A DNA stretch of 42,872 bases from assembly GCA_048940645.1 (NCBI GenBank), contig JBHLOI010000029.1:1-42872 (forward strand), given 5' to 3'. This stretch comes from Promethearchaeota archaeon. GTDB taxonomy: Archaea > Asgardarchaeota > Lokiarchaeia > Sigyniarchaeales > SOKP01. The notes beneath the pieces were generated by a model. That model saw only the letters and a program-made list of their open reading frames with translations. It searched no databases and was not told the DNA's origin. Of the stretch, positions 1,135 to 30,769 are shown in pieces. Position 1 is the stretch's first letter; each line of letters begins with the position of its first letter. Made by a program: the position numbers and the translations under genes.

Positions 1135-2325
1135 TTAAGATTCAGAATCCTTTTCCTCTTGTTTTTTTTCTAATTCTTTAATACGTTGTTCCATTCGTTT
1201 CATCTCATCCTCCACTATTTTTTCCTTTATTTCTTCAATTTTTTTTTGTTGCAATTCTAATTCTACTTCAGATAACTCTCCTTCTCTTTCAAGTAATTCT
1301 TCTCTACGCTTTAGCAATTCTTCTTTCTTTTGGATTTCTATTTCTTCAATTTCCTTTTCTTTTGATTCTAACTCCAATTTCTTCTTCTTTAGTTCTAAAT
1401 CTTTTTTCTTTAATTCGATCTCTTTATCTAAAATCTCAGATTCTTCTTTTTGAATTTTTTTCTTAATCTTTTTTGGAATTTCAGGTAATTCTTTTTCAGA
1501 AGGAAGTAACTTTTCTTTTTCAATTATTTCCTCTTTTAATTTCTGTTCTTCTAATTCTAATTTCTTCTTTTTTAATTCAAGCTCTTTCTTTTTTAATTCA
1601 ATTTCTTTATCAATTATTTCTGTCTCTTTGTGTTCTAATTTTTCTTTCTCAGTAATTTCCTTTCCTTCTTCTTCAACAATCTCTTCAATTTTTTCAATCG
1701 AAACAATGGATTTTAAGATATTATCTACTGATTCCTTAACCTGCTCATTTTCAAGATTTTCTTTGGCATAATTCTTTATAACTTTGGTAACTAAAGATGG
1801 ATTTCTGTTACCAATTGCCTTTAAAGCTTGGATCGCTTTTTCAACAACAAAATCTTTTTCATCAGATAATTTCTCTGTAATTGTATTTATTAATGACTCA
1901 TTTTCGATTATGATATCTCCACCTGCCATAAAAATTAATAATTGTAAATCAGCTTCACGAACATTTGGGTCATCAGAATTTAACAAATCTTCACTAAAAG
2001 GAAAGAATAAATCCTGCTCGTTTTCACATACAGTTTTTAATAGTAATAAGAATGAATACCTTAACACAGAATCTTTCTTTGATAAATTTTCTAATAGGGA
2101 GGGAATATCGATAACTAACTGTTCAATTAAAAATCTTAATACAGTTCGCCCACCATGTAAAGTCAAAAGGGTTTCAATGAGATCTTCAAGACGATCTAGG
2201 TAATCTTCATCAGTAGAATCACCTAGAAAAAGCGCTATGATTTTTACTGCATCATCAAACCTTTCATCATTTACAAAATCCTTAATCTTCATAATTTCAG
2301 GATTTTTTTGCTCTTTTTCACTCGT
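1135..2325 (-). CDS. HEAT/ARM-repeat protein with long E/K-rich coiled-coil C-terminus
   Basis: HEAT-like 'LLNSDDPNVREA' and 'KLSDEKDFVVEKAIQALKAIG'; C-terminal half is E/K heptad-rich. ORF-track ATG is 2292, but the frame is open to ACG at 2325, 6 nt after an AAGGTGG SD (would give MSEKEQKNPEIM...). The start is inferred. Confidence 0.7.
   Translation of the reverse strand, partial: TSEKEQKNPEIMKIKDFVNDERFDDAVKIIALFLGDSTDEDYLDRLEDLIETLLTLHGGRTVLRFLIEQLVIDIPSLLENLSKKDSVLRYSFLLLLKTVCENEQDLFFPFSEDLLNSDDPNVREADLQLLIFMAGGDIIIENESLINTITEKLSDEKDFVVEKAIQALKAIGNRNPSLVTKVIKNYAKENLENEQVKESVDNILKSIVSIEKIEEIVEEEGKEITEKEKLEHKETEIIDKEIELKKKELELKKKKLELEEQKLKEEIIEKEKLLPSEKELPEIPKKIKKKIQKEESEILDKEIELKKKDLELKKKKLELESKEKEIEEIEIQKKEELLKRREELLEREGELSEVELELQQKKIEEIKEKIVEDEMKRMEQRIKELEKKQEEKDSES
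1370..1630 (-). repeat. Intragenic duplicated ~28-aa coiled-coil motif
   Basis: ETEIIDKEIELKKKELELKKKKLELE versus ESEILDKEIELKKKDLELKKKKLELE. Boundaries approximate. Confidence 0.75.
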
Positions 2326-2352
2326 ATTATTCCACCTTACTTTTTTTAATTT

Positions 2353-3285
2353 TTAAACCCATAATATATAAAAATCATTATACAACCGAAATATAATATT
2401 CAAAATTAATCTTAAATCTCTATATCTCAAATTCATAGATTCTAGTCCAATACATAATTTTATTGAAAAATTTCCTCGTTTGTCGATATATAAATTTATT
2501 TCTTTACAAAATTGACTTAAAGCATCCAGATCGTTAGGAAACACATTCCATAAATAATATTCTTTTTTATTCTCTTCATTTTCGATTGGAGTTTCACTAA
2601 TTTCGGATAGTGTTGCTTTTGGAATTATTGTAATAACTTCTACATGCTCATTAGGAACTAATCGTATTTTTACTTCGGGGAAGAAGATTTTGGAGAATAA
2701 ATCAATTAATCCTTTTAATAGTTCCAAACTTATGATGCTTTCTCTATTTGCGCTACATAGTACATATCCCTTGTCAATAAAAATTATATGAATTCTATCT
2801 CCATATTTAAAAATCATGTAATTTTTTTCTTTTGATATTAAATATTGAAAATCTTCATCTCTATTATTTATTCTATCATCAAAAATCTTTCTTGCTTCTT
2901 TAAATTCATTTTTAGAAAGGAATTTATTTAATTTTCTATAATCTCCATGAAAAAATACGTCTAGAAAATCTATTAGATATAAATATGCATCAAAAGGTCT
3001 ATATACTACCGTTTTATTTCTAAAATCACGTAATACAATATTTTTATGAACGCTATAGCAAAATTTAGGTTGATCCTCTATATTTAAATCACTTAATATC
3101 CGAAGTTTTAGTAGAAATCTTCTGGAACATAAAGGTGATAAAGTACATAATATACGATCCACTTGACATTCTTCAAAACATAGCTTATATATTCTCTTAT
3201 TAAGTAAATCTATTAATTCAGATCTAGTTTTCATGTCTGAATCATTTTCTAAAAACCTGTAAATATGTTCTGGTTCCAGAGGCAT
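2353..3285 (-). CDS. Hypothetical protein with N-terminal Cys cluster
   Basis: 310-aa ORF with C-x3-C-x6-C-x5-C (CFEECQVDRILCTLSPLC). No family recognised. Confidence 0.6.
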   Translation of the reverse strand: MPLEPEHIYRFLENDSDMKTRSELIDLLNKRIYKLCFEECQVDRILCTLSPLCSRRFLLKLRILSDLNIEDQPKFCYSVHKNIVLRDFRNKTVVYRPFDAYLYLIDFLDVFFHGDYRKLNKFLSKNEFKEARKIFDDRINNRDEDFQYLISKEKNYMIFKYGDRIHIIFIDKGYVLCSANRESIISLELLKGLIDLFSKIFFPEVKIRLVPNEHVEVITIIPKATLSEISETPIENEENKKEYYLWNVFPNDLDALSQFCKEINLYIDKRGNFSIKLCIGLESMNLRYRDLRLILNIIFRLYNDFYILWV

Positions 3286-3490
3286 AATTTATTGTATTCT
3301 GAAAGTCGAATGGATTTATATTTTATTTAAAAATTATATAACAAAGAATCTAAAATTTTTCTATAACTTTTAATTGGAATAAGAGAAATATCAAAATTAA
3401 AAGTAATGATATTAAAATATATTAATAAGTAATTTTTATATTTTTATTAAGAATAGAAGAAGGATTCCTAAAGAGAGATAGATTAAAAAA

Positions 3491-5017
3491 ATGTTAAGGC
3501 AACTTCACGTATTTCATAAAGGTGAACAAATTTATAATTATATCTATGCAATGGCTCTTGGAGATGAAGAATTAGAAAACGTAAAAAGGACTATTAAGTC
3601 TTATATAGATATGCCCTTACCCGGAAAGATATTTCAGAAGCCACTAGGAGAATTTCAACTTTTCCATAGAACTCTTGGAAATAATCTATTTTTAATGATA
3701 ACTGATTTAGTAGATAATCGTGAACATGTAGAAGAAATTCTAAGGTTGATAAGTAAGAATTTTAAAGAATATTTTCCTGATTTTAATGCTCTTAAGAAGA
3801 CTGATTTAAACCTAAAAGAATTTGAAAAATTCTTGCAAGATATGCAATATGAATTGCATTCAAAAATAGTTGTAGTTGGCCCTGTTGATTCTGGAAAGAC
3901 TACGTTATTTAATATGTTAAGAAGTAATGATGAAAAAAATATTATGAATTTTGCTAAATCTTCGGTGTTTCAAATTGATAACTTAAAATTCGATATATGG
4001 GATTTCCAGCTTAAAGATAATTTCTCATTATTATGGTCTAAATTTATAAGTGGAGCAGATTTAATATTACTCTTATTTGATTTATCAAATTATCATTTGC
4101 GTGTAATTAGTCATTTTATGGATCTACATCGAAATGAAGGTAAATTGTCGAAAATATTAATTATTGGCAATAAACGAGATTTAGTAAATAAGGAAGATAT
4201 TAAATTAATTCAAAATGAATTAGGAATTCCTAAATTTGAAGAAATTTCTCTAACAGAGCCTGATATTAAAGGAAAAATAATTCAATTAATATCTGAAATA
4301 ATGAAATTAAGAAAATCATTGCCTTCAAATTTTGAAGAGTTAAAGAAAAAAGCCGAAGATGCAAAAGCCGAAGGAAATCTGGTATTAGCTATGTCAAAAT
4401 ATAAAGAATTAATTACTATATGCAATATGTTTCAAGATTTTAAATATGTCGCGTCATTTAAACAATCTTTAAAGGAACTACAAGAAAAATTAGAAGAAGA
4501 AAAAAAAGTTAGACATGAGATTGAGAGTAAAAAGAAGTTTGAAATTCCAGGTCAAATTAAATTCACAAAACCTGTTACGGTTAAACCACTTCCATTAGAT
4601 AAATCTAAAATACGTTCAGAAATAACACCTAAAATTAGTAAACCAGAAATAGTACCTAAAATACATTCAGAAATAGCACCTAAAATTAGTAAACCAGAAA
4701 TAGCACCTAAAATGCGTCCAGAAATAACACCTAAAATTAGTAAACCAGAAATTGAAAAAGATGAATTAAAAATTAAAGAATCTGAGATAGGAAAGTTAAC
4801 TTTATTTAAACCTTCTGAAGAGACAGAAGAGGAGCTAACTCCTTCGAGAGAGTTTTCAAAGATATTAAAAGAATTAATTGAGAAGAAAGGAAGCTCTCTA
4901 AGTTTAAAATTGTGTGAACATTTAATAAACCAATTACAAACTACTTTAGGAAGAACATTAACCTTAGAAGACGTTGAAACTGCTGCTAAAATTTTTATTA
5001 AGCAAGATAACTTATAA
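3491..5017 (+). CDS. Longin-like domain fused to an atypical small GTPase, a helical/coiled-coil region and Pro/Lys repeats
   Basis: G1 GPVDSGKT, G4 NKRD, degenerate G3 (WDFQLK). The N-terminal ~120 aa has a longin-like pattern (LFLMITDLVDNREHVEEILRLISKNFKEYF). Confidence 0.75.
   Translation: MLRQLHVFHKGEQIYNYIYAMALGDEELENVKRTIKSYIDMPLPGKIFQKPLGEFQLFHRTLGNNLFLMITDLVDNREHVEEILRLISKNFKEYFPDFNALKKTDLNLKEFEKFLQDMQYELHSKIVVVGPVDSGKTTLFNMLRSNDEKNIMNFAKSSVFQIDNLKFDIWDFQLKDNFSLLWSKFISGADLILLLFDLSNYHLRVISHFMDLHRNEGKLSKILIIGNKRDLVNKEDIKLIQNELGIPKFEEISLTEPDIKGKIIQLISEIMKLRKSLPSNFEELKKKAEDAKAEGNLVLAMSKYKELITICNMFQDFKYVASFKQSLKELQEKLEEEKKVRHEIESKKKFEIPGQIKFTKPVTVKPLPLDKSKIRSEITPKISKPEIVPKIHSEIAPKISKPEIAPKMRPEITPKISKPEIEKDELKIKESEIGKLTLFKPSEETEEELTPSREFSKILKELIEKKGSSLSLKLCEHLINQLQTTLGRTLTLEDVETAAKIFIKQDNL
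4607..4753 (+). repeat. Intragenic 51-bp (17-aa) tandem repeat, ~2.9 copies
   Basis: KIRSEITPKISKPEIVP / KIHSEIAPKISKPEIAP / KMRPEITPKISKPEI. The DNA core cctaaaattagtaaaccagaaat is identical in all three copies. Confidence 0.9.
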
Positions 5018-5149
5018 AAAATCTCAAGAATTTTAAAAAAAACTTATTATTTAGTTCAACTAAAGTTCACAACCTACTTCTTTTAAAACGATTAAATATT
5101 CAAAAACCTATAATTAAATTTCTTGATATATAAAAAGAATGATATAATC

Positions 5150-6643
5150 ATGAGTGCAATAAAAGAACTTCGGGAATATTTTGAAGAAATAATGCGATTA
5201 AACTATATACAAAGCGCCTTAGGTTGGGATCAAGAAGTTAATATGCAAAATTACAAATCTTTAGAAGGTAGATCTAAACAAGTCTCCTTAATAGAAAAAT
5301 TAGTTCATAAAAGGTTAACTTCAGAAAAAGTTGGTAAATTAATAAAGGAAGCTGAAAAACTCTCTAATCTTAATGAAATTGAAAGCGCAATGCTTAGAGA
5401 GATTACTAGAGAGTATAATCTCGCAACTAAATTACCTGAAGAATTAGTTGTAGAAATCGCTGAAACTAGTATATTAGCTTCTAAAATCTGGAGAGAAGCT
5501 AGATCTAAAAGTGATTTTTCAAGTTACCAAAAGATCCTCGAAAAGAATATCGAATTACAAAAAGAAAAAGCAAGAAGGCTTGAAACCCATCCAGATGCAT
5601 ATTCTACTTTAATTGATTTATATGAACCTGGTGCTACATATGATTGGATTGCTAATGTTTTTAACCCTATAAAGTCGAAATTAATAGATTTTGTAAAAAG
5701 GTTAAATGCCTCTTCAAATAAACCTGATGATTCAATATTAAAAAAAAATTATGATCCAGACACACAGTTTAAGCTAAGTCGTGAAATTATAAAGAAATTG
5801 GATTTTGATTTCGGACATGGACGCCAAGATAAATCAACCCACCCATTTACATCATCACTCGCCTCCTTAGATACAAGAATCACTACAAGGACAACAGAAC
5901 CTTTTCCAGATTGTATTACTAGTACTATACACGAATGCGGGCATGCTCTTTATGAAATGGGTATTAAAGAAGAATTACATGATACAATTCTATGTGATGG
6001 TACTTCAATGGGAATTCATGAATCCCAATCAAGAATGTGGGAAAATTTAGTAGCTCGGAGTAAGGAATTTTGGGTGTATTGGTATCCTATTTTTCAAAAA
6101 TATTTCCCTCAGAATCTGAAAAACTATCCCATGGAGGAGTTCCATAGAGCTATAAATATTGTTCAACCATCGTATATAAGAGTAAATGCAGATGAAGTAA
6201 CATATGGACTACACATTATTTTACGATTTGAATTAGAGAAAGATCTAATAGATGAGAAAATTCAAGTAAAGGAATTACCAGAGTTATGGAACTCTAAATT
6301 TGAAGATTTATTAGGAATCATCCCGCCAAATGACGCTCAAGGAGTTTTACAAGATGTTCATTGGTCAATGGGCGCCATCGGTTACTTCCCAACCTACTTC
6401 TTGGGTAATTTATACGGGGCGCAAATTTATAATAATGCTTTAAAAAAATATCCTTCATTACCGGAAGATTATAAAAAAGGAGAATTTTCCACTCTTTTAA
6501 ATTATTTAAAAGAAAAGATACATCAACACGGAAAAATTTACAGAGCTTCTGATCTGATTAAGAAAGTTACTGGAGAGGATTTAAATCCGGATTACTTTTT
6601 AAAATATATTCAAAATAAATTTCCTCCGATTTATGGAATATAG
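5150..6643 (+). CDS. Carboxypeptidase Taq family (peptidase M32)
   Basis: HPFT, HECGHALYE (HExxH), HESQSR, IRVNADE and QDVHW motifs. ATG 5150 preferred over TTG 5123. Confidence 0.95.
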   Translation: MSAIKELREYFEEIMRLNYIQSALGWDQEVNMQNYKSLEGRSKQVSLIEKLVHKRLTSEKVGKLIKEAEKLSNLNEIESAMLREITREYNLATKLPEELVVEIAETSILASKIWREARSKSDFSSYQKILEKNIELQKEKARRLETHPDAYSTLIDLYEPGATYDWIANVFNPIKSKLIDFVKRLNASSNKPDDSILKKNYDPDTQFKLSREIIKKLDFDFGHGRQDKSTHPFTSSLASLDTRITTRTTEPFPDCITSTIHECGHALYEMGIKEELHDTILCDGTSMGIHESQSRMWENLVARSKEFWVYWYPIFQKYFPQNLKNYPMEEFHRAINIVQPSYIRVNADEVTYGLHIILRFELEKDLIDEKIQVKELPELWNSKFEDLLGIIPPNDAQGVLQDVHWSMGAIGYFPTYFLGNLYGAQIYNNALKKYPSLPEDYKKGEFSTLLNYLKEKIHQHGKIYRASDLIKKVTGEDLNPDYFLKYIQNKFPPIYGI

Positions 6644-6708
6644 TTTTTGACCAATTTTTTTTTTCTTTCTTTAAAAATACGTAAAGTTTTATCTAATAGT
6701 AGGAAAGA

Positions 6709-7308
6709 TTGTCGATGTTATTACATATAAAAAAGTTTTCTGAAAAACTATTACTTCCTTTAGGAAAGAAATTAATAAAAATCCCTGCTAATTTTTTTAC
6801 AATTTTGGGTTTAATTTCTTCAATTATAACGTTTTTTAGCTTTTTATATCAAAATCTCTTGATAATTATTATTTTCCTTTTTATAACTGAATTTTTTGAT
6901 CAATTGGATGGGGTCGTTGCTCGTCTTCAAGGTCCAACCAAATTCGGAGCTTTTTTGGATTCTACATTAGACAGAATTGGAGATTTCTTTATATTTATCG
7001 GTGTTTTTTTTGGAGGGTATACATCAATTGAAATTTGCATAATTGTTTTATTAGGTGCATTTTTAACATCTTATACACGAGCTAAAATTGAAGCTTTAGG
7101 CGTCATTAGTCTCTATGGAGTTGGATTAATTGAAAGGACAGATAGGATTCCTATTCTATTTATCGGAGCCATTTTTCAATTCTGGTTTCATAAGGCAATT
7201 TTTTGGACCATGATAATTTTAGCAATAGGGACGATTTTTACAGTAATCCAGCGAATGATTTATGCTTATAATAAGTTTACTATAAAGAAACAAAAAAAAT
7301 TAATTTGA
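6709..7308 (+). CDS. CDP-alcohol phosphatidyltransferase (archaetidylinositol-phosphate synthase-like)
   Basis: Signature DxxDGxxAR...GAFLDSTLDR; hydrophobic TM segments; SYTRAKIE motif. Confidence 0.9.
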   Translation: MSMLLHIKKFSEKLLLPLGKKLIKIPANFFTILGLISSIITFFSFLYQNLLIIIIFLFITEFFDQLDGVVARLQGPTKFGAFLDSTLDRIGDFFIFIGVFFGGYTSIEICIIVLLGAFLTSYTRAKIEALGVISLYGVGLIERTDRIPILFIGAIFQFWFHKAIFWTMIILAIGTIFTVIQRMIYAYNKFTIKKQKKLI

Positions 7309-7534
7309 AAAAGGTTTCAATCTTCCAGCAAAACCTCTTAGCTCATTTTCCTAATAATTTTCATATAGTTGAAAATAGCAAGTATTTAACGAATATAATT
7401 ATTTATTTTAATGCTATGGTTATTATTCTCATTTTCAAGTAGAGTTGAGTTCTTTTTTTAGCTCAAATTTATATATCTCTCTTGTTATAATTTATTAAAT
7501 TACATTCGGTTAAAAACCATCTTGTAATAAGAAC

Positions 7535-8503: not shown

Positions 8504-8538
8504 AGATTTCATTTATAAAAATAGTATGGTGATATTAA

Positions 8539-9189
8539 ATCCCAAAAAAAGAAAAATTAGAAGAAATTACATCAAAAGATTTCCAAAACTTGGTAAATCA
8601 ATTGAATAAGATAGAAAATCAAATAAATATATTAAAAGCTATGCCAAAATCAATCCAGAATTTAACCAATAGGATTGAAAAAATTGAAAATAAACTTAAT
8701 CCTATGAAAACATTGCCCAAAGATGTTCAGGTTTTAATAGAAAAAACCAATAAATTGGATAGTGATATTAATACTATTAATAGAGAAATCTCTTTTAATA
8801 GAGAGCAAATTGAGGAAAAAATCAAAATACAAGAAGAAATCATAATGGATATGATTAAGAAATTTAATGATGAATTTCTTAAGCATAAGTCTGAAGTTTC
8901 AGAGGAAATGGAGACTATAAAAACTCAACAAGATGTATTAAAGATATCCTATGCTGTAAATGAAAACAAGCTCATTAGTAAAATTAAGTCATTAATTACA
9001 GCTGAATTAAAGAATAGAATTCAAGGGCAAGAAAGCGAAATTTTAATGAAGATGTGGATAGATGAATTTAAAGAGATTGCTAATAATTTTGAAAAACTAA
9101 AAAAACTTAAACCAAAAGAATTTAATTTAAGATTGAATGAAATTTTGAATACAATAGAACAATTTAAAGAAAAAATTCATACTTTTTAA
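8539..9189 (+). CDS. Coiled-coil protein
   Basis: Heptad-rich ORF. Track start is TTG 8590, but the frame is open to ATC 8539, 6 nt after GGTGA (MPKKEKLEEITSKDF...). The start is inferred. Confidence 0.65.
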   Translation: MPKKEKLEEITSKDFQNLVNQLNKIENQINILKAMPKSIQNLTNRIEKIENKLNPMKTLPKDVQVLIEKTNKLDSDINTINREISFNREQIEEKIKIQEEIIMDMIKKFNDEFLKHKSEVSEEMETIKTQQDVLKISYAVNENKLISKIKSLITAELKNRIQGQESEILMKMWIDEFKEIANNFEKLKKLKPKEFNLRLNEILNTIEQFKEKIHTF

Positions 9190-9222
9190 TAAAAATAGAT
9201 TAGATACAAAAGAAAAACTAAT

Positions 9223-10365
9223 CTAACTTCTTAATCTTGGAGGAGGTACATAGACTTTTCTCAATCCTTCTTTTAATGAGATTGCATTTTCCGGGCAAAA
9301 ATGTACACATACTCCACATCCTATACACCAATCTGGATTTCTTTCCGCCTTATCATCACCATTTAATTCAATAGCACCAACAGGACATTTCTCTACACAT
9401 ATACCACATCCAACACATGAATCTTTATCGATAATCGAAATAAAATTTGTTGAATTTATCATTGCCGTTGAACCTCTTCTCCACCAATCAAATGTCCCAC
9501 AGCAATCTTCACAACAATTACATATACTAGTTTCATCTTTAGAGATATCAGAATGAGGGTGCCAAGCTTTATGCACTAAACCGTCTTTTTCAGATTCTTT
9601 TATTAATTTTAAAGCTTCTTCCTGTGAAATAATCCTTCCAAATCCTTGTTCCGCAACATATTTAGCAGATTTTCCAAAAGTAAAACAATTTTCCCTTAAT
9701 TCAGTTTGTTTACATGGATTTCCTAATAAATCTTGATGGTGTCTACAAAAACAATAGCCTACAGCTACATCGTTGAATTTTTTTATTATATCTTCCACCT
9801 TTTGTGTAGGAATAACTATTTCTTCTGGAACTTCTAATTTTTCGTTAATTTCTATGTTTATTTCTTCACCAGATACATTTTTATCTAAAATAGGGATTGT
9901 CCTATCAAATGGAGGCATATTTTGAAATAATGTTATTACAGTGTCATAATTTTCTTGTATAAAATCTGATAATTCATTAAAAAGCTTGGCAAATAATGCA
10001 GCTAATTCTTTATTGTCTTCTGAAAATTCGATTTTTTTCATAAAAGTGTATTCAAATACTCCAACCATTACTAAGGGCATTAGGCGATATACCATAACTC
10101 CTTTTGAGTTTGGTTGATTGAATATAAAACCTTTTTTAGCTAATTTTTTTACGTGATATAATATCTCTTCCTCTAACATTTTACTACTTACTTTTAATTG
10201 TTCCATGGTTTGTGAAGGTTTTCTCTTAAATGCCATAATAAAATCTAAATCATCTTCATCTAGTAATATCTTCAAAAGTTCAATCACAGTATTGTTTATA
10301 GGAAAAGGGAGAAATCCCGCTTTTATAATAACGCGAGCAGCTTTGTGGTATTTATCAACTGACAT
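9223..10365 (-). CDS. 4Fe-4S dicluster ferredoxin-domain protein with N-terminal winged-helix-like region
   Basis: C-terminal CVGCGICVEKCP and CIGCGVCVHFCP; additional CFCRH and ICNCCEDCC motifs. Confidence 0.85.
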   Translation of the reverse strand: MSVDKYHKAARVIIKAGFLPFPINNTVIELLKILLDEDDLDFIMAFKRKPSQTMEQLKVSSKMLEEEILYHVKKLAKKGFIFNQPNSKGVMVYRLMPLVMVGVFEYTFMKKIEFSEDNKELAALFAKLFNELSDFIQENYDTVITLFQNMPPFDRTIPILDKNVSGEEINIEINEKLEVPEEIVIPTQKVEDIIKKFNDVAVGYCFCRHHQDLLGNPCKQTELRENCFTFGKSAKYVAEQGFGRIISQEEALKLIKESEKDGLVHKAWHPHSDISKDETSICNCCEDCCGTFDWWRRGSTAMINSTNFISIIDKDSCVGCGICVEKCPVGAIELNGDDKAERNPDWCIGCGVCVHFCPENAISLKEGLRKVYVPPPRLRS

Positions 10366-12490: not shown

Positions 12491-12531
12491 AATATCTAAG
12501 AAAATTTTAAATGTTTTTTAAATCCCTATAT

Positions 12532-21479: not shown

Positions 21480-22169
21480 TTATTCTCCTCTCATTATCTT
21501 CTTTAAGCGATTCAATTCTTCAAGCATCTCATCTCTTAAGGAACTTAAGCCTCCTCCTGCTCTTGGTGCGACACTGGATGCTGCTGGTGCTGCGGGAGGT
21601 ACTGCTCCTGGAGCTCTTGGAGGAGCGCCGCTGGTAGGAGCTGCAGGGGGACCAGTTCGTTTTGCAAAAGTTGGCGCTTTTACTATTCCACCACTTGGAG
21701 CGGCAGGAGGAGCGCCACTTCCTGATGCGGGAGGTAGTTTTGGAGCTGGAGGCAAATTAGCACGTGCTGGAGGAGTACCACCTGGAGGTGCTTTTGGAGG
21801 ACCACCGCCACTAGGAGGAGCTTTTGGAGCCCCAGCCATAGGAGGTTTAGGAAGTCCAGGACTAGCACTAGCCGTAGTGGGTGCTTGAGCTGGCGCTTTC
21901 CCTCCACTTAATAAATTAAATAATGTACTCGCAGCAGCCGTTTTAGCATTACCAGTAGCCGGCGTTGCAACTATTTTAGAGGAAGTACTAACTGTTTGAA
22001 TCTCATCGACAACTTTTACTTCTTTTAAATCTTTTAATGCTTTATTTAAAGATTTTATAAAATCATTAATCCCTTTAACAGTTTCCCCAAGATCATCTGA
22101 TAAAGAAGTCAATCCCTTTTTCATAAAATTAATAACGCGTTCCAGCTTTTTTTGTTCTTTTGAAACCAA
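21480..22169 (-). CDS. Coiled-coil / Pro-Ala-Gly-rich / C-terminal WH2-like helix protein
   Basis: N-terminal amphipathic helices, ~110-aa Pro/Ala/Gly low-complexity tract, C-terminal LRDEMLEELNRLKKIM; TTG start after GAGGA. Confidence 0.7.
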   Translation of the reverse strand: MVSKEQKKLERVINFMKKGLTSLSDDLGETVKGINDFIKSLNKALKDLKEVKVVDEIQTVSTSSKIVATPATGNAKTAAASTLFNLLSGGKAPAQAPTTASASPGLPKPPMAGAPKAPPSGGGPPKAPPGGTPPARANLPPAPKLPPASGSGAPPAAPSGGIVKAPTFAKRTGPPAAPTSGAPPRAPGAVPPAAPAASSVAPRAGGGLSSLRDEMLEELNRLKKIMRGE

Positions 22170-22592
22170 GATTTAATCAAATCCTCTAAGTTATTTTTAA
22201 AAGTAGAATATTATATATTTATAGTGATAATTCAATTATATTAATTTATATTTTTGCTTTTATGGTTTTTATAATTTGTGAATATACCCTATTTTTTAAC
22301 TAAATACATTAAAATTCCGAGGAAAAAAGAAAATGATAAAGCTATTCTAACCTTTAAAAATATTTATATTTAGAATGATATTATTTTCTAACTTGTAAAA
22401 TCCTAAATGAAATCTAAAATCTTAAAGTAAAAAAAATAACAATTAAAAATCCTAAATCTAATAATATTATATACGATATTTCATTAGAAATTTTTAATTT
22501 ATTCGAATGAAATAAATTCAAAATTAAAATAAAAAATATAATTCAATATAATTTAATCATTGAGGAGATTTTTCGAAAAGTGGTGATGGATT

Positions 22593-22859
22593 ATTCCTAA
22601 GCGTGAACTTTTTATTAAGCGGGTCTATGAGATTGTAAATGAACTTAAAATTCCATTAATAGATGAGCGTGTTTATGATAAAGTAACTTTTGGTACAAGT
22701 GCCGCTATCGCTAAAGTTGTTTTCAAATTTGAAGAAGATGAATCAGTAATTCGCGGATTCCTTGGTTTAGCAGAATACTTCCATACTGTTGTAATCAAGA
22801 AAGGAGATCAATTTTACATTCCGCATGCCTCGATTCTCTTTCAATTAGTTAGCTCATAA
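22593..22859 (+). CDS. Unannotated 88-aa hypothetical protein, probably ATT-initiated
   Basis: Stop-free frame (M)PKRELFIKRVYEIVNELKIPLIDERVYDKVTFGTSAAIAKVVFKFEEDESVIRGFLGLAEYFHTVVIKKGDQFYIPHASILFQLVSS*. No in-frame ATG/GTG/TTG; GGTGA at 22582-22586; coding-like composition against AT-rich flanks; T-tract after the stop. Confidence 0.75.
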   Translation: MPKRELFIKRVYEIVNELKIPLIDERVYDKVTFGTSAAIAKVVFKFEEDESVIRGFLGLAEYFHTVVIKKGDQFYIPHASILFQLVSS

Positions 22860-22904
22860 TTTCATATTTTTTTTACTTTTCTTTTTATCAAGAATTTGTT
22901 TTAT

Positions 22905-23609: not shown

Positions 23610-23873
23610 TTCAAATAATATTATAGATCTCTTTAAATTAAATAGTTAAGCTATTAATTAATTGTAATTAGGCATGACTAATTTATTAAAATTTTAATAA
23701 TAAGAGATTGATCAAATTTAAGATAAAGTAGAGTTTATTGCTATTCTTATTCAAATTAATTATGTTTCATAAATTATCAGTAAATATTTAAATTAATTTA
23801 AACCTTAAATAAATAATAGAAAGATGTTTGAAAATTCGACTTCTGAATCATCAGATATTGATGATGATGATAT

Positions 23874-24428: not shown

Positions 24429-24980
24429 ATGGATTACTTTAAAAAAATTTTCAAGGAATCAATTATCGTAGTTATCATATCCTCAATATTGGGATTGATT
24501 TCAGGTACCATTCTTTCAGAAAATCAAGATGTATTGTACAGTTTTCCAATTATCTTATTAATTTTACCTTCATTGAATTCTTTAATAGGAGATATTTCTA
24601 CAGTCTTAATCTCTAGATTAACTTCTCATTTATATATTGGGACTGTATCTCCTAAAATTCAAAAATCAGATAGACTAAAGGAAGATTTTTATGGATTGCT
24701 TATAACTATTTTATTAAGTTTATTTGCATTAATTATATTAGGATACTTATTTGGTTATATTTCAGGAATAATAATAGTAAATCCTTTTTTAATAATATTA
24801 ATCATTATGATTACCATTCTACTGCTTTTTAGCTTGATGTTTGTATTTCTGTTCGTGAGTTCTATTTTTTTATTTAGAAAAGGTAAAGATCCAAACAATT
24901 TTTTAATACCGATTACAACATCCTTGTTAGATTTTCTAACCCCATTGTTTATGATATTATTTATTCAATTATTTGTTTAA
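24429..24980 (+). CDS. MgtE/SLC41 integral-membrane domain (subunit 2)
   Basis: PSLNSLIGD and GKDPNNFLIPITTSLLD; starts immediately after the upstream stop (TGA-ATG). Confidence 0.8.
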   Translation: MDYFKKIFKESIIVVIISSILGLISGTILSENQDVLYSFPIILLILPSLNSLIGDISTVLISRLTSHLYIGTVSPKIQKSDRLKEDFYGLLITILLSLFALIILGYLFGYISGIIIVNPFLIILIIMITILLLFSLMFVFLFVSSIFLFRKGKDPNNFLIPITTSLLDFLTPLFMILFIQLFV

Positions 24981-24999
24981 AGGAGTGAAAAAAAATAGT

Positions 25000-26247
25000 A
25001 TGATGCAAAGAAAGAAGAAGAAATTTAAATATAAACCGCTCTCCGTAAGAGAAATTCTTAGAGAAATGAAACAAAGCATAGATTTAATGATAGATTTAGC
25101 TTACAGTGCAATTAAATTTGGAAGTAAGGAAATTGCTGATGAGGCCTCTAAAATTGAAAAGAGAATCCATGAATTAACATTTTTACTTAATTTGCAAATC
25201 ATTCAGACACAGGTGGGAGGGGTAAAAGAAGCTAAAAAACTAGAACCAATAGTAGTTATGGGATACTCAATTGATAAAATTTCAGATGCATTAGCAGATA
25301 TTGCAAGGGTAGTATATATAAATAGTGATATTTGTGATTTTACCCAATTATTCTGGGATGAGGTACCTGAACCAATAGTTAAAGTTACTGTTAAAAGAAA
25401 ATGTGAATTTATAGGAAAATGTCGACGTGACGTTCATTTTCGCTCAATACATGGAGTAGATTTAATTGCTATTAAAAGAGATGATGAATGGTTATTTAAT
25501 AAAAATGAGATTATACAAGAAGATGATATTTTAATAATCAAGGGCGAACTCGAGCCGATTAGAGAATTAAAAAACTTAGTCTTTGATAATGAAGTTATTT
25601 CTTTTCAGATTGATAATCAAAAGAAGGAATCAGAGTTTGACTTATCTAATCCAGAAATATTAGAAAACCTTCAAGAATTAAAAAAAGATTATGTATTAAT
25701 CACAGATATTTCGGAAACGATGATAGAGTTGGCTTTAGCGGCATTATTCTTTAATAGTTATGAGGTTGCTGAAGATGTTCTAGAAATGGAAGAGCTTATG
25801 GATGGGTTAAATATTACCTTTGAGAAAGATCTCTTAGATTTTGCTCATTTAGTGGACAATCCTCGTGATCTTACAGGTATTATGAGAATTGTTTTTTCTT
25901 GTGAACAAATATCAGATGGAGCCGCGAATATAGCTGAAAATATTTTAAAAGGTTTTGAACCCCATATTATTTTACAAAAAGCTATTGAAGAAACCCAAGA
26001 AGTTGTTGTACGTGAAATACTATCACCAGATTCATATTTTAAGAATAAGACCTATGAAAAATTACAAGATCGGCGTTATAAAAGAGGTTTTCATATTATT
26101 GCCTTGAAAAGAGATGATAAATGGATCTATAGTTTTAAATCTGATTTCATATTTCAAGAAGGGGATTTATTAATTGGACTGGGACCAAAAGAAACAGTAG
26201 AACAATGGAGAAGATGTGTACATCCCGAAATTTTCAGAGAAGAATAA
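25000..26247 (+). CDS. Tandem PhoU-like + TrkA-C (RCK_C) regulatory protein
   Basis: Duplicated 'LMIDLAYSA/TMIELALAA' PhoU-like helices and 'LIAIKRDDEW/IIALKRDDKW...GDLLIGLG' TrkA-C. ATG 25000 follows AGGAGTGA (track start 24973). Confidence 0.8.
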   Translation: MMQRKKKKFKYKPLSVREILREMKQSIDLMIDLAYSAIKFGSKEIADEASKIEKRIHELTFLLNLQIIQTQVGGVKEAKKLEPIVVMGYSIDKISDALADIARVVYINSDICDFTQLFWDEVPEPIVKVTVKRKCEFIGKCRRDVHFRSIHGVDLIAIKRDDEWLFNKNEIIQEDDILIIKGELEPIRELKNLVFDNEVISFQIDNQKKESEFDLSNPEILENLQELKKDYVLITDISETMIELALAALFFNSYEVAEDVLEMEELMDGLNITFEKDLLDFAHLVDNPRDLTGIMRIVFSCEQISDGAANIAENILKGFEPHIILQKAIEETQEVVVREILSPDSYFKNKTYEKLQDRRYKRGFHIIALKRDDKWIYSFKSDFIFQEGDLLIGLGPKETVEQWRRCVHPEIFREE

Positions 26248-26255
26248 GTCTAAAA

Positions 26256-26260
26256 GGTGA
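26256..26260 (+). promoter_or_regulatory. Shine-Dalgarno GGTGA, 6 nt before ATG 26267
   Basis: Direct reading: aaaaGGTGAgtaaaaATG. Confidence 0.7.
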
Positions 26261-26266
26261 GTAAAA

Positions 26267-26854
26267 ATGAAATTTGAAGAACGAAAAAAGAGATTTTTAG
26301 ATATCCTTATGGAAATAGCTGAAACTATAAAAAAAAATAGTAATATAATAAATTTTGAAAAAATAAATAACTTGATAGATTTAATTGTTAAAACTTATGG
26401 TGACAATCGTATGGTCTTTCTCTATGGAGCAGGTAGATCTGGATTTATAGGTAGATGTTTTGCCCAAAGATTAATGCATCTAGGAATTAAATCTTGCTTT
26501 ATATCTGATTCTGTTACTTATAGATATAATCATAAAGATTTATTAATTATTATCTCTGGAAGCGGAGAGACAACCTCACCGTTGGCAATAGCAGAAAAAG
26601 CTAAAGAAATGGGTGGAAAACTAGTCTTATTAACAGGTAATCCATACAGTAATATTGCAAAGTTATCTGATCTAATAATCCAAATTGAAGGAAAAAGTAA
26701 AGAAAAAGCATTAATAGAAGAGAGTTTAGCTCCATACACAACTTTATTTGATATTTCAACTCTAGCAATTTTAGATACGATTGGAGGTGTATTGATGACG
26801 ATACTAGGCGTATCAGAAACTGATATTGATAATCGACATGCTTCAATAGAATAA
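26267..26854 (+). CDS. hxlB: 6-phospho-3-hexuloisomerase (SIS domain)
   Basis: YGAGRSG, FAQRLMHLG, ISGSGET, LAPYTTLFD and C-terminal RHASIE. Confidence 0.88.
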   Translation: MKFEERKKRFLDILMEIAETIKKNSNIINFEKINNLIDLIVKTYGDNRMVFLYGAGRSGFIGRCFAQRLMHLGIKSCFISDSVTYRYNHKDLLIIISGSGETTSPLAIAEKAKEMGGKLVLLTGNPYSNIAKLSDLIIQIEGKSKEKALIEESLAPYTTLFDISTLAILDTIGGVLMTILGVSETDIDNRHASIE

Positions 26855-26863
26855 AATTTTTAG

Positions 26864-27268
26864 TTGAATCTTATGCATGAATATATACAAGTAAGATATA
26901 TTTCTGAGAAAAAAGGAAGAGGAGCTTTTGCTAAAAAGCGAATTAAAAGAGGGACCCTTATAGATATTGCGCATGTAATTCCTATCCCAAATAAAGATTA
27001 TAAAAAAATATGTAAAACAAGATTGTATGATTATTGTTATATTTGGGAAGATCCAAAACATTTACCGGAATTTAAAAACGCTATAACGCTAAGTATAAGC
27101 CAATTTATCAACCATTCCTTTGAACCTAACGTTAAATATTTGTATGATTATAAGGAAAAAGCAATTGAATTTTCTGCGATTAGAGACATTTCTGAGGGTG
27201 AGGAATTAACTATGAATTATAATGGTTTAGTTGATGATAGAACTCCTGTATGGTTTGATTTAGAGTAA
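26864..27268 (+). CDS. Stand-alone SET-domain protein (putative lysine methyltransferase)
   Basis: KGRGAFA, FINHSFEPNV and AIRDISEGEELTMNY. Confidence 0.9.
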   Translation: MNLMHEYIQVRYISEKKGRGAFAKKRIKRGTLIDIAHVIPIPNKDYKKICKTRLYDYCYIWEDPKHLPEFKNAITLSISQFINHSFEPNVKYLYDYKEKAIEFSAIRDISEGEELTMNYNGLVDDRTPVWFDLE

Positions 27269-27270
27269 AT

Positions 27271-28137
27271 CTATTTTTTTATAAGAGACTTTAATGTGGA
27301 TAAATTCATAACATCCTCTTTCAGATCTTTGCCTTTTGGTGTTTCTAATATCCCAGGATGTTCCTTAAACTTCTCATCATTGACAAAAAATCCAAATGCT
27401 TCTTTTCCTATTTTTCCTTGCCCTATATGCGTATGACGATCAACTCGAGATCCTAAACCTTTTTCAGAATCGTTTAAGTGAAATGCAAAAAGATAATCTA
27501 ATCCTACCATGTCATCAAATTCATTCCACATTTCATTATATTTCTTTTCGGTTGTAAAATCATACCCAGAAGAAAAAGAATGACATGTGTCAAAACATAC
27601 TCCAATTCGGTTTTTATTGTTAATCTTATCAATAATAAGCTTTAAATGATGAAATTTACGCCCTAAATTATGACCCTGTCCTGCAACGGTCTCTAATAAT
27701 ATTTTGACGTTAGATTTCTCAGTATCTTGCATTAATTTATTTAATTGTTCAGCAATACGAGTTAATCCAGTCTTTTTGCTTTCATTTTCATCTTCAAAAT
27801 TATAAGTACCTGGGTGAATTACTACATAATCTAATTTAAGTTGTTCAGCTTTAACTAATTCATCTAGCATAGCAGTATAAGATTTAGTAAGTTTTTCTTG
27901 ATCTGAAGTAGCCAAATTGATTAAATAGCTATTATGAGAGAGAAGTGGCCAAATCTGTTCTTGAAATTTCGCTTTCGTTTCTAAAAATTCATTAATTTCT
28001 TCTTGATCTAATGGTTTTGATGACCATCCTCGAACATTTCTTATAAAAACTTGAATTGCTTCACAACTAAGCTCTTTTCCTCTTTCAAGAGCCATGTGTT
28101 TTCCACCACTTACACTCATATGAGCTCCTAATCTCAA
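27271..28137 (-). CDS. nfo: Endonuclease IV (AP endonuclease)
   Basis: LGAHMS, HNSYLINL, HPG, LLETVAGQG, CFDTCH, HLNDS, DRH and ILETP. TTG 28137 after AAGGTGT preferred over GTG 28146. Confidence 0.95.
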   Translation of the reverse strand: MRLGAHMSVSGGKHMALERGKELSCEAIQVFIRNVRGWSSKPLDQEEINEFLETKAKFQEQIWPLLSHNSYLINLATSDQEKLTKSYTAMLDELVKAEQLKLDYVVIHPGTYNFEDENESKKTGLTRIAEQLNKLMQDTEKSNVKILLETVAGQGHNLGRKFHHLKLIIDKINNKNRIGVCFDTCHSFSSGYDFTTEKKYNEMWNEFDDMVGLDYLFAFHLNDSEKGLGSRVDRHTHIGQGKIGKEAFGFFVNDEKFKEHPGILETPKGKDLKEDVMNLSTLKSLIKK

Positions 28138-28211
28138 TAAATACACCTTAAGTAAATTAGTTTAAAAATTCTTTAAATAAAATAAGAAATAAAATATTTT
28201 AATTATTCGGT

Positions 28212-29384
28212 TTAATCCGTTATTTCATAATCTATTTTATCAAGAATTTCAATTATATCAATTATTTCAAAATTCATATTATATTTTTGATTGGCATCAG
28301 ATAAATTAGTTCTGCAGAATGGACAAACCGAGGTAACTTCACTTGCCCCAGTATTTTTTGCCTCCTCTAAACGTTCTCCTGAAATTTCAACGGCCCAATC
28401 TGGATATCCAATCTTAACTCCACCACCAGCTCCACAGCACCAAGCATTTTCCCTATTACGTTTCATTTCTACTAATTGAACTCCAGGAATTTGTTTAAGA
28501 ACCTCTCGTGGGATATCATAGACCCCCATATGTCTTCCTAAATGACAAGGATCATGATATGTTACCTTTTTGTTATATTCTGATTTAAATTTAATTTTAT
28601 TTTCATCTAAAAGTTTTTTTACTAATTCTATTGTATGGTATATCTCGATACCTAAATCTACCTCAAATTTAGACCAATCTTTCTTTAAAGTTCTATAACA
28701 GCCAGCACATGACGTAATAACTTTCGTTGCTCCTTTTTTTTTTATTTGAGTAAGATTATAATTCATAAAATCTTTTACTGGCTTGGTTTGTCCAGTCCTT
28801 ATAATTGGACTGCAACAACAATGCTCATCTATCAATGTAAAGTCTACTTTTGCTTTCTTAAGAAAATTCAAAGTAGCATCTCTTAGATTTTTCTGACGAT
28901 AATTAGAAGTGCATCCAATGAAGTAAATCCATTCTGCCTTATCTGGTAAATTATACTTATTCTTCAATTCTTCATTATCGGAATTAGTTTCTCCATAAGG
29001 ATTAAACATCTCTGCATTTTCAGTACGTTCCAAAAGAACTGTTTGTTTTTCTAGACAAAAACCATTTTTTACAGCTTCAGCACGAGCAGCTTCAATAAAA
29101 TCAACAAGAAAATCATTAAATTTATCAAATACACAATTTTCTGTGCAATTTCCGCACGTAGGACATGCATATAATACGTTTGCTACACCTGAGTTCCATT
29201 GAATCTCTCCACTTATTAAACCATAAATTAACCATAATCTTCCACCAGTACTATAAGTTTCAAATTTATACTTTTTATAACTAGGACAGTTAAAATCAGC
29301 ATAATCATGAGTGAATTTACAATAACCACATCGAAAACATCGATGAATAATATCTTTCCAATCTTGTTCAGAATTAATAGTTAT
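28212..29384 (-). CDS. Fe-S oxidoreductase (GlcF/HdrD-like): N-terminal 4Fe-4S dicluster plus two CCG domains
   Basis: The track ORF (from 29033) has GCT...HCCC...[22 protein letters not shown] and CPFC. The in-frame upstream 117 codons add CFRCGYC...CP and [11 protein letters not shown]. The only plausible start is ATA 29384 after GGAGGTGA. Confidence 0.88.
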
Positions 29385-29386
29385 TT

Positions 29387-30769
29387 TTACTTCACCTCCC
29401 AGTTTCCTGGATTCATTATTCCATTTGGATCAATAGTGTTTCTAATATTGTCAAATAACTTTTTGTAGTTAGGGTCCATCTTTTCAAGAATTAATTGTTG
29501 TCCTGATAATTCTGCTTTCCATGGAATGCCCCCTAATTCCAAAGCTAATTTATTGGTTTCATGTAAAGCATTTCTGGCATTTTCCTTATCTTTAGGATCA
29601 CTCCGATTAAATGAATATGAAAAGAACATAACAATATTATGAGTTCCTCTAATCAACCGTGATCCTAGTGTTGGTACGATTCCATATTTTTTTGAGATTT
29701 CAGCACCTCTTCTATAAGCTTCGGGAATATTTTCAAGAGGCATATTAGCTCCAACATATTCAAAACCGCCACCTTTTCGATAATCTGCAGCAGTTGCTGC
29801 GGTAATAATAGGTTTTTTTAAATAATTTTGTCTCAATCTTTCTGGTGGTTTCATATACCTTGCTTTTGCTTTACGAAATATTCGTTTAAATGTTTTTGTA
29901 TGAGAATCTATTTCTTCTTGTGTTTCACCAGTAACATACGTTATAAGTATAATATATCCCTTCACCCAGTCGGGTTTATCTTGCATTCCAAGTATAACAT
30001 CCTCAGCTAAACCAGTTTCAGTTAGCTTTAGGAGAGCATTAGGAATATCTTTCGGATCATTTAATAATCCAAATACCACTTCTCGAAACTTAGGTTTATC
30101 AAATAATTGAATTGAAAGCTTAGTGACAATTCCCATAGTACCAAATGAACTAATAAATAATCCAATAAGATCTGGGATGGGACCTCTAGCAAACCAATAT
30201 TTAGACACTGCACAAGAGCCCATTTTACATACATCCCCCTTTGGAAGAACTACTTCTAACCCATTTATCATAGAACCATGATCACCATATTTTTGAGATA
30301 AATAACCTGAACCATAAATCAAAACATTACCAGCAACAGTTGCGGAAGGAGGAGCATCCGGTATTGGAGGCTGCAAATTTGGATAATTTTCATTTAAAAA
30401 TGAAAGAAGTTGTCCTGTAGTGACTCCTGCTTCTATAAGAGCATATTTACTAAGTACATTTATTTCAATAATTTTATTCATTCGTTTCATATCCATAACA
30501 ATGCCACCTTTTACAGGAATTATTAATCCGCTTAATGTTAACCCCCCACCCATAGGAACAATTGGAATTTTCTCTTGATTAGCTAATTTTACAATCTTTT
30601 GTATTTCTTCTACATTTTCTGGCATTACTACAAAATCAACTTGACGAGGTAATGAAGCTCCTGGATCTTGAGAGTAAATGTATAAATCTTCTTCTCTACT
30701 TGATACAAAATCCTTTCCAACAATATTCTCTAATTCTTTAAGTACCTTATTTTCATACAATGAAATCAA
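29387..30769 (-). CDS. FAD-binding oxidoreductase (GlcD/D-lactate dehydrogenase-like)
   Basis: [37 protein letters not shown] and C-terminal DPNGIMNPG. The real start may be TTG 30760. Confidence 0.9.
29392..29399 (-). promoter_or_regulatory. Strong Shine-Dalgarno GGAGGTGA in the last codons of the upstream gene, 7 nt before ATA 29384
   Basis: The minus strand reads tgGGAGGTGAagtaaaaATAact. Confidence 0.75.

Follow-up and report, generated by a model that had tools for sequence, protein, structure and literature searches.

Intact, conserved genes of a Loki-type Asgard archaeon start at ATT, ATA, ATC or ACG, 6–7 bases 3' of a strong ribosome-binding site (SD). This is confirmed, with the ACG at position 2325 less certain than the others. 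With near-cognate starts placed 6–7 bases after an SD, standard gene finders therefore shorten or miss the proteins. Judged from the sequence, the near-cognate codons are very probably genuine translation starts on leadered or operon-internal mRNAs. The source is an uncultured Promethearchaeota metagenome-assembled genome (G000; GC about 28%), and the window is the whole analysed stretch of 42,872 nucleotides. The initial annotation listed four loci with a GGTG-type SD followed by a near-cognate codon; all coordinates and spacings were reproduced, as was the control, in which an ordinary ATG follows GGTGA after 6 nt:

26256 to 26269, + strand: internal control GGTGA-6 nt-ATG (GGTGA at 26256 to 26260, ATG at 26267)

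The spacing at all four loci is 6–7 nt, matching the register of canonical starts (genome-wide ATG optimum at aligned spacing 5–7). The claim that three loci lack a usable canonical start is true for ATC 8539, ATT 22593 and ATA 29384, each of which has an in-frame stop immediately 5' of it. Observed directly were the identity and spacing of the codons, the lack of canonical alternatives, the interchange between orthologues and the enrichment across the genome. Met is presumed as the first residue at the near-cognate codons, and the efficiency of these starts is likewise presumed.

The third locus encodes a conserved protein of Loki-type archaea, for which no Pfam family was matched:

22582 to 22586, + strand: SD motif GGTGA, 6 nt before ATT 22593, its TGA in frame with the gene
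22593 to 22859, + strand: coding sequence of a conserved 88-aa Loki-type protein, read from ATT (orthologue alignment)

Across the whole 90-codon open reading frame there is no ATG, GTG or TTG, and the gene is uncallable by gene finders limited to these codons. Among 77 distinct sequences, the start column holds ATG (48), ATT (17), TTG (8), ATC (2) and ATA (2).

At the fourth locus, an iron-sulfur protein gene follows a gene for an FAD-linked oxidase:

29387 to 30769, - strand: FAD-linked oxidase (GlcD-like), upstream gene with TAA stop at 29389 to 29387
29392 to 29399, - strand: extended SD motif GGAGGTGA, within the 3' end of the oxidase gene, 7 nt before ATA 29384 to 29382
28212 to 29384, - strand: coding sequence of a (Fe-S)-binding protein, GlcF/HdrD-like, from ATA, with a 4Fe-4S dicluster and two CCG domains

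Translational coupling of the two genes is probable, because the TAA stop ends 2 nt before the ATA. The first canonical codon, TTG 29033, lies 118 codons downstream of the ATA (codon 133 of the open reading frame). A start there would remove both CxxCxxC Fe-S cluster motifs. Databases hold the protein as this 273-aa product, and six lengths from 273 to 399 aa occur inside one 90%-identity database cluster. The column comprises ATG in 8 genomes, TTG in 2, ATT in 3 and ATA in 3.

The second locus encodes a coiled-coil protein:

8528 to 8532, + strand: SD motif GGTGA, 6 nt before ATC 8539, with GGTG equally spaced in about 23 orthologues, in any frame
8539 to 9189, + strand: coding sequence of a coiled-coil protein from ATC (IPKKEKLEE...), with an in-frame TAA directly upstream

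TTG 8590, 17 codons further on, is the earliest canonical codon, and its use would drop 17 conserved residues. Near-cognate codons prevail in the column: of the distinct sequences, 17 have ATT, 4 have ATC and 1 has ATA, whereas a single one has ATG. A shortened product of 199 aa is held in a public collection; together with the 273-aa product of the fourth locus, it bears out the prediction that gene callers truncate such proteins.

The proposed comparison of orthologues gave the expected picture. Aligned orthologues from the same genus retain the N-terminal extensions, and the column of each flagged codon is occupied in them by ATG, TTG, GTG or a further near-cognate codon. A GGTG-type SD always lies 5–8 nt upstream of the start column, at a distance maintained irrespective of the reading frame, and in-frame stops usually stand just before it; TAA, TAG and TGA all occur in these alignments. 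The SD match is longer for ATT, ATA and ATC (mean 5.57) than for ATG orthologues (4.42), and this holds in every family, the sequences being phylogenetically non-independent.

The enrichment of near-cognate codons after SD motifs extends to the whole genome, as predicted. The counts at SD+5..7 are ATG 203, TTG 66, GTG 23, ATT 57, ATA 39 and ATC 20. ATT, ATA and ATC peak at the aligned spacing of 5–7, as does ATG, and their 116 sites compare with 50.6 expected from off-register spacings. Relative to 11 composition-matched control codons, the odds ratio for on- versus off-register positions is 2.6 (Fisher p = 3e-9). The related genome G018 yields the same enrichment (OR 3.3, p = 0.007). These three codons make up about 18% of the SD-led starts passing filters and begin at least about 2% of genes, with a background share of about 44% in the sites counted. 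For ACG and CTG at SD+5..7, no significant enrichment was found across G000. In an unbiased comparison of G000 against 608 kb of G018, an N-terminally aligned counterpart placed a canonical start opposite 6/18 ATT/ATA/ATC sites, versus 4/65 for other codons. Pairs in which ATT, ATA or ATC faces one of the same codons between genomes could be mere conservation of Ile codons. A small second residue (S/P/T/A/G/V), as expected of a true N-terminus, follows ATT, ATA or ATC in 47% of cases, non-start codons in 34% and ATG in 59%; the 47% fits a mixture of true starts and background of about 56:44. A coding-potential score of the N-terminal extensions gave no discrimination. The 3' end of the 16S rRNA, taken from the genome's own gene, is GGAUCACCUCCU, the exact complement of AGGAGGUGAUCC. 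Near-cognate start usage is systematic within the genus.

The first locus encodes a HEAT-repeat and coiled-coil protein:

2332 to 2336, - strand: SD motif GGTGG, 6 nt before ACG, present in all 3 genomes with ACG
2323 to 2325, - strand: ACG, probable near-cognate start (column comparison, conserved extension)
1135 to 2325, - strand: coding sequence of a HEAT-repeat and coiled-coil protein read from ACG (weak matches to Pfam Cnd1/HEAT)

An alternative ATG is present at 2292 to 2290 (- strand), 11 codons downstream of the ACG. The start column shows ATG in 23 genomes, GTG and TTG in 2 each and ACG in 3; for 3 of the ATG genomes the alignment was offset and the codon was read by eye. A start at the downstream ATG would delete the conserved extension MSEKEQ.NPEI. 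At this locus only, it is possible, though the less favoured reading, that the ancestral ATG decayed to a dead ACG, that ATG 2292, newly arisen, has taken over as the start and that the extension has been lost. Codon 12 is ATG solely in the three genomes with ACG (G000, G042, G031), which resembles a start migration; the remaining genomes have ATA, TTA, GTA, ACC or others in its place, and ACG is the codon without significant genome-wide enrichment. However, the GGTGG motif still stands exactly 6 nt before ACG 2325, while ATG 2292 has no SD. The extension in the ACG clade bears just 2 differences, both synonymous, with no stop and no indel. In addition, GGTGA-N6-ACG works as a start at two other G000 genes without a canonical alternative. 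A HisB-like gene presents GAGGTGA-N6-ACG (column: ACG 3, TTG 4, ATG 18), and an HdrC-like gene presents AGGTGA-N6-ACG (ACG 2, ATG 20, GTG 2). On these alignments the motif is validated as a start in G000. The SD and the N-terminus assigned to ACG 2325 in the initial annotation stand, the rival ATG confined to the ACG clade weakens the assignment, and ACG 2325 is the probable start of the protein.

The same starts could be read by a second, dedicated initiator-like tRNA or by a modified anticodon recognizing AUU, AUA and AUC, the ordinary Met-tRNAi being intolerant of mismatches. Such an arrangement is unlikely. It would suit the great excess of ATT, ATA and ATC over CTG and ACG among the near-cognates, but the AT-rich composition by itself accounts for this excess. 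ACG starts occur too, and no initiator-like anticodon arm other than CAU was found among the 30 tRNAs assembled in G000.

Very unlikely, and largely refuted, is the view that the near-cognates are ordinary internal or non-coding codons at a coincidental distance from an SD, with the proteins beginning at the next canonical codon. Gene-caller models of this kind exist in databases, and about 44% of the genome-wide ATT/ATA/ATC sites at SD+5..7 are indeed background. The third locus, however, offers no canonical codon at all, the first one at the fourth locus would cost the protein both cluster motifs, and the extensions are conserved as protein and ATG-initiated in orthologues. The enrichment is confined to the SD register.

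Recoding, either by a frameshift from the out-of-frame ATGs in the SD region (8526, 22586) or by read-through of the upstream stop, is highly improbable. These ATGs overlap the SD at the second and third loci, and an A7 run follows at the second; yet they are missing from most orthologues, e.g. AGGTGTTAAAGT ATT and TAAAGGTGAAATATA ATT. The in-frame stop before the start is TAA, TAG or TGA by turns; therefore, the orthologues share neither a slippery site nor the reassignment of one particular stop. Errors of sequencing or assembly, or pseudogenes in a genome of low quality, for which the draft state of G000 (89.6% complete, 126 contigs) might speak, have next to no probability: the frames are intact and the substitutions conservative. 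A single sequencing artefact had been argued against initially, and assembly error is excluded because independent assemblies of several species have identical bases (ATA in G013, ATT in G018, G001 and G006, ACG in G042 and G031).

Near-cognate initiation led by the SD would proceed as follows. The 16S rRNA tail would pair with the strong SD (GGTGA, up to GGAGGTGA) and set the codon 6–7 nt downstream into the P site, GGAGGUGA-N6-AUU/AUA/ACG being the architecture predicted to support initiation. The initiator Met-tRNA would be accepted with one mismatch, in the third position for AUU, AUA and AUC and in the second for ACG, a tolerance presumably offset by the strong SD. Compensation of a weak codon by a strong SD is suggested because near-cognate starts have a longer SD than ATG orthologues within families. 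At a genomic GC content of 28%, AT-biased mutation is a plausible source of these codons, turning ATG into ATA or ATT.

The gene for the initiation factor aIF1 (C43:36271, - strand) carries ATT at the start column, without a canonical alternative. All 20 orthologues found in the genus share this ATT. In G000 it is preceded by an in-frame TGA at a distance of 3 codons, and the alignment of the product to aIF1 of M. jannaschii begins at residue 3 of the latter. The SD is imperfect (AGGTTGTGA) and 9 nt from the ATT. Loop 1 of the factor appears intact (DRRKWGR vs TKRRFGK), basic and aromatic residues being kept; therefore, nothing indicates a lax factor. The earlier proposal of relaxed, SD-directed start selection is thus supported as an interpretation, while "relaxed" goes beyond a factor whose loop 1 is preserved. 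Near-cognate genes may respond to the aIF1 level, and a feedback resembling that of bacterial infC (AUU) is suggested because aIF1, the rejecter of non-AUG codons, itself has an invariant ATT. Tentatively, and at odds below even, Loki-type archaea may possess a two-tier initiation, in which the output of a sizeable number of SD-led AUU, AUA, AUC and ACG genes is set by the aIF1 level and aIF1 limits itself through its invariant AUU.

Starts of this type have bacterial and eukaryotic parallels. In Escherichia coli, infC (encoding IF3) and pcnB start at AUU behind an SD, and infC is autoregulated through its AUU. As in these genes, a near-cognate codon at canonical SD spacing replaces ATG here, and the gene of a fidelity factor has such a start (AUU in infC, ATT in aIF1). 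The factor differs, however, being IF3 in bacteria and the eIF1 homologue aIF1 here, and a handful of bacterial genes contrasts with about 18% of SD-led starts in G000, conserved across the genus. The alternative initiators of NCBI table 11 include ATT, ATC, ATA and CTG; ACG, used here besides ATT, ATA and ATC, is outside this table. In eukaryotes, near-cognate initiation (CUG, ACG, AUU etc.) is gated by eIF1, which autoregulates via its own poor start context. The likeness comprises a SUI1-family protein policing the codon, a suboptimal start on the factor's gene and a usable ACG. In contrast to eukaryotes, scanning and a Kozak context play no part here; SD pairing places the codon, and third-position mismatches dominate.

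Among Asgard archaea, the tubulin AtubA of a Kariarchaeaceae metagenome-assembled genome, with a proposed "rare ATT start codon", was the sole case of a near-cognate start found in the literature, and it is anecdotal (PMC13394414). There too, ATT at a plausible ribosome-binding-site distance restores a conserved N-terminus missing from the deposited protein, but it concerns one gene, in a Methods remark, and was treated as rare, whereas the present usage is systematic, quantified and comparative. In Pyrococcus abyssi and Sulfolobus solfataricus, aIF1 discriminates against non-canonical codons (PMC6237735). These archaeal models share an SD-prepositioned preinitiation complex with aIF1 as gatekeeper, and the model mRNA GGAGGUGAUUUAA-AUG-CCA-AAG equals loci 2 to 4 in architecture; they differ in that AUG, GUG and UUG usage is described there. 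Ribosome profiling of Haloferax volcanii revealed about 30% near-cognate codons among alternative start sites, but they were set aside (PMC7261190). Reviews describe SD sequences as rare in Lokiarchaea and leave near-cognate starts unmentioned.

Loki-type Asgard archaea are the closest prokaryotic kin of eukaryotes. Asgard proteomes are mined heavily for eukaryote-like proteins, and nearly all of them come from gene callers restricted to ATG, GTG and TTG. Should ATT, ATA, ATC or ACG open a few percent of genes, these proteins lose their N-termini, among them Fe-S motifs and perhaps signal or targeting sequences, and whole small genes are missed. Weak starts kept across species, one of them on aIF1, provide a direct handle on the pre-eukaryotic evolution of eIF1/aIF1 fidelity. 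The two-tier system, if true, would give archaea an equivalent of both the infC autocontrol of bacteria and the eIF1 autoregulation of eukaryotes, and eIF1-gated near-cognate initiation would be older than eukaryotes.

The four near-cognate sites singled out in the initial annotation are confirmed, with positions and gaps of 6-7 nt to the SD sequence all as first described. The window (GC ~28%) lies on contig C42 of a draft genome, G000 (3.83 Mb, 126 contigs, 89.6% complete). The 3′ end of this genome's own 16S gene reads GGATCACCTCCT, so that the expected SD is AGGAGGTGATCC, with GGTGA as its core. The codons concerned are the following.

2325 (-): ACG, start of locus 1, a HEAT-repeat/coiled-coil protein; GGTGG and 6 nt precede the codon
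8539 (+): ATC, start of locus 2, a coiled-coil protein; GGTGA and 6 nt precede the codon
8542-8544 (+): second codon of locus 2, proline
22593 (+): ATT, start of locus 3, a conserved 88-aa protein; GGTGA and 6 nt precede the codon
22596-22598 (+): second codon of locus 3, proline
29384 (-): ATA, start of locus 4, an (Fe-S)-binding protein; GGAGGTGA and 7 nt precede the codon
26267: ATG, control; GGTGA and 6 nt precede the codon

In-frame stops are placed just 5′ of each of the four loci. Canonical alternatives (ATG, GTG or TTG) are absent from the ORF of locus 3 (22587-22859). The first one in locus 4 occurs only 133 codons into the ORF, and a start there removes both CxxCxxC motifs from a protein with a 4Fe-4S dicluster and two CCG domains. 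The nearest canonical codon of locus 2 lies 17 codons downstream of the ATC, and an ATG follows the ACG of locus 1 after 11 codons. Three of the four cases are operon-internal, the preceding gene being 27-35 nt or less away. At locus 4, the stop of the upstream gene lies between SD and ATA, so that translational coupling may help.

Orthologous loci were collected from up to 40 same-genus genomes and 80 public contigs, each anchored on a protein alignment. The N-terminal extensions are kept at the protein level, with synonymous third-position changes, and the interchange of canonical and near-cognate codons expected at one position appears in the start columns of all four loci. At locus 4, eight genomes have ATG in this column, two TTG, three ATT and three ATA; GGAGGT stands 5′ of it in all orthologues, and the upstream FAD-oxidase gene (NPGNWEVK*) terminates 0-5 nt before it. 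The 77 distinct sequences of locus 3 carry ATG (48), ATT (17), TTG (8), ATC (2) and ATA (2). Locus 2 starts with ATT (17), ATC (4), ATA (1) or ATG (1). Its GGTG is found at constant distance with the GTG in frame or not, which identifies GGTG as SD and not as start. The column of locus 1 comprises ATG 23 (three assigned by eye in offset alignments), GTG 2, TTG 2 and ACG 3. Upstream of the orthologous starts, TAA, TAG and TGA take turns as stops, and out-of-frame ATGs within the SD region are absent from most orthologues. Together with the conserved extensions, this excludes read-through, frameshifting and assembly error.

A genome-wide scan considered every exact SD match of at least 5 bases and read the codon at an aligned spacing of 0-13. 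Sites were retained if their frame ran on without a stop for at least 80-100 codons, if an in-frame stop lay at most 20 codons upstream, and if no canonical codon occurred between this stop and the site or in the next three codons. In G000, ATG, ATT and ATA all reach their maximum at a spacing of 5-7. Counts at this spacing were ATG 203, TTG 66, GTG 23, ATT 57, ATA 39, ATC 20, CTG 7 and ACG 4, the last two codons being too rare for a genome-wide signal. ATT, ATA and ATC reached 116 sites, against 50.6 expected from off-register spacings; compared with 11 composition-matched codons, the odds ratio was 2.6 (p = 3e-9). The excess of ~65 sites corresponds to ~18% of filter-passing SD-led starts, or at least ~2% of ~4,000 long ORFs. 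A 528-kb contig of the relative G018 behaved likewise (odds ratio 3.3, p = 0.007), and the predicted enrichment over background thus holds for these three codons in both genomes. In 400 kb of G026, from another family of the order, the trend was non-significant (odds ratio 2.4, p = 0.08). A reversed-SD control was set aside in favor of the off-register spacings, since the reversed motif includes GGAGG and is contaminated. A codon log-odds score for the stretch from the near-cognate to the first canonical codon gave no separation (ATT/ATA/ATC 0.10 vs. 0.05 bits per codon in controls) and was discarded: the codon bias is not strong enough, and SD-like motifs within genes are a further source of noise.

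All scan sites were also compared between G000 and 608 kb of G018 in both directions by aligning N-termini. Of 18 ATT/ATA/ATC sites, six faced a canonical start, ten faced ATT/ATA/ATC and two another codon. Other codons stood opposite a canonical start in 4/65 cases, and canonical sites opposite ATT/ATA/ATC in 5/81. Aligned pairs include MSFPKISR vs. ISFPKISR and MGNTYNNIIE vs. IGRIYQNIIE. A further example begins with IRLLEYESK, which resembles succinyl-CoA-ligase-type N-termini.

A small second residue (S, P, T, A, G, V) follows ATT/ATA/ATC in 47%, ATG in 59% and non-start codons in 34% of cases; 47% is the value predicted if true starts and background contribute ~56% and ~44% of the sites, respectively. 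Proline is the second residue in 13.7% after ATT/ATA/ATC vs. 4.0% after ATG (p = 0.003, G000). ATH CCN AAR is common to loci 2 and 3 (IPK...) and to aIF1 genes of another genus, and the proline excess may be a context effect. In every family, the SD match is longer before near-cognate starts than in the orthologues with ATG: 7.7-8 vs. 6.25 for locus 4, 5.1-6 vs. 4.5 for locus 3 and 5 vs. 3.6 for locus 1. The pooled values for these phylogenetically non-independent sequences are 5.57 vs. 4.42 (Mann-Whitney p = 1e-8).

The use of ACG and the start of aIF1 involve three genes on other contigs of G000.

C30:14519 (-), locus L262: ACG of a HisB-like gene
C20:11171 (-), locus L263: ACG of an HdrC-like gene
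C43:35933-36271 (-), L191:1453-1791: aIF1 gene, the sole SUI1-family gene of G000

The HisB-like gene shows GAGGTGA-N6-ACG with an in-frame TGA upstream. Its next canonical codon is at +19, beyond the conserved RKTKET, and its start column holds ACG 3, TTG 4 and ATG 18. The HdrC-like gene has AGGTGA-N6-ACG behind an in-frame TAA, the next canonical codon at +57, beyond the first cluster motif, and a column of ACG 2, ATG 20 and GTG 2. Both genes indicate that ACG is a usable start in G000. At locus 1, the ATG at codon 12 is present only in the three ACG-bearing genomes, which makes start migration a real rival; translation from ATG 2292 alone is nevertheless rather unlikely, and ACG is the likely start. 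An HdrA-like gene at C10:14324 (-) is a third ACG-start candidate. In the family of protein P0004 (loci L089, L155, L160), three genomes have ACG at the start position with one inserted nucleotide behind it, and the frame is restored by a GTG four codons ahead of the conserved IKRVY, an apparent start-site replacement.

The aIF1 gene itself reads in-frame TGA, then AAA AAG AGT ATT AAA GAC GAC GAG ATT TGT CCT..., with the TGA three codons before the ATT and without a canonical codon ahead of the zinc knuckle. The SD is imperfect (AGGTTGTGA), 9 nt from the ATT. All 20 orthologues found within the genus share this ATT; TTG, or ATA CCA AAA, occurs in other families of the order. The alignment of its product with M. 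jannaschii aIF1 (4mo0) begins at 4mo0 residue 3. Archaeal aIF1 is reported to discriminate against non-canonical codons (PMC6237735). In the G000 product, loop 1 is still basic and aromatic in character (DRRKWGR, against TKRRFGK; residues per PMC6237735), and nothing points to a crippled factor.

As foreseen, gene callers truncate such genes, and public collections hold truncated products of 273 aa (locus 4) and 199 aa (locus 2). Within one 90%-identity cluster (P0005-P0019), database entries for the locus 4 protein have lengths of 273, 341, 379, 389, 396 and 399 aa, set by the position of a canonical codon; several entries begin at a TTG within the SD. Further window genes with homology apparently beginning ahead of the called start (11957, 23645, 24955, 32342, 34819 and 37219) were rejected as candidates, being explained by conserved canonical ATGs or overlap artefacts. 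The first in-frame TTGs at 34801 (vs. ATG 34759, -), 37168 (vs. ATG 37144, -) and 24973 (vs. ATG 25000, +) are probably not the starts; orthologues keep the ATG 14, 8 and 9 codons downstream, respectively, and relatives have stops upstream. ORF 9254-9556 (+), 100 codons without canonical start behind GGAGGAGGT, carries stops in relatives and was dismissed as the shadow of gene 9223-10365 on the opposite strand (-). The product of gene 21480-22172 (-) contains an extended low-complexity region rich in Pro, Ala and Gly (PPKAPPGG...), where GC locally climbs to 36%.

For the layout GGAGGUGA-N6-AUG/AUU/AUA/ACG, the SD duplex would fix the codon in the P site, and Met-tRNAi would then be accepted on near-cognate codons despite a single mismatch. 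A strong SD may offset the weak codon, and AT-biased mutation could be the source of ATG to ATA or ATT changes. The output of near-cognate genes may follow the aIF1 level, with aIF1 limiting its own. Alternatively, though less probably, a dedicated tRNA would read AUU/AUA/AUC. ARAGORN runs that allowed or disallowed introns, the Rfam tRNA model applied to the genome, a regular expression and a pattern search across the genus yielded no initiator-type tRNA. The strictness of the pattern was probably excessive, and tRNAs of these assemblies often contain introns or are absent; in G000 only 30 were detected, many of them with introns and no initiator among them. C101:14410-14497 (+) of this Asgard genome encodes a tRNA for selenocysteine (anticodon UCA).

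For ATT, ATA and ATC, the evidence supports their interpretation as near-cognate starts; for ACG this interpretation is probable. Table 11 includes ATT, ATC, ATA and CTG among alternative initiators. Bacterial SD-led near-cognate starts are rarities, e.g. infC and pcnB (AUU), whereas in G000 they make up ~18% of filter-passing SD-led starts. Ribosome profiling of H. volcanii detected near-cognate sites, which were then discarded (PMC7261190). Reviews describe SD sequences as rare in Lokiarchaea and do not mention start codons. In the literature searched, which did not cover every journal, no systematic description for Asgard was found, the sole mention being one 'rare ATT start codon' proposed for an Asgard tubulin (PMC13394414). 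Near-cognate initiation is already known in kind; its extent here is new and quantitatively unusual.
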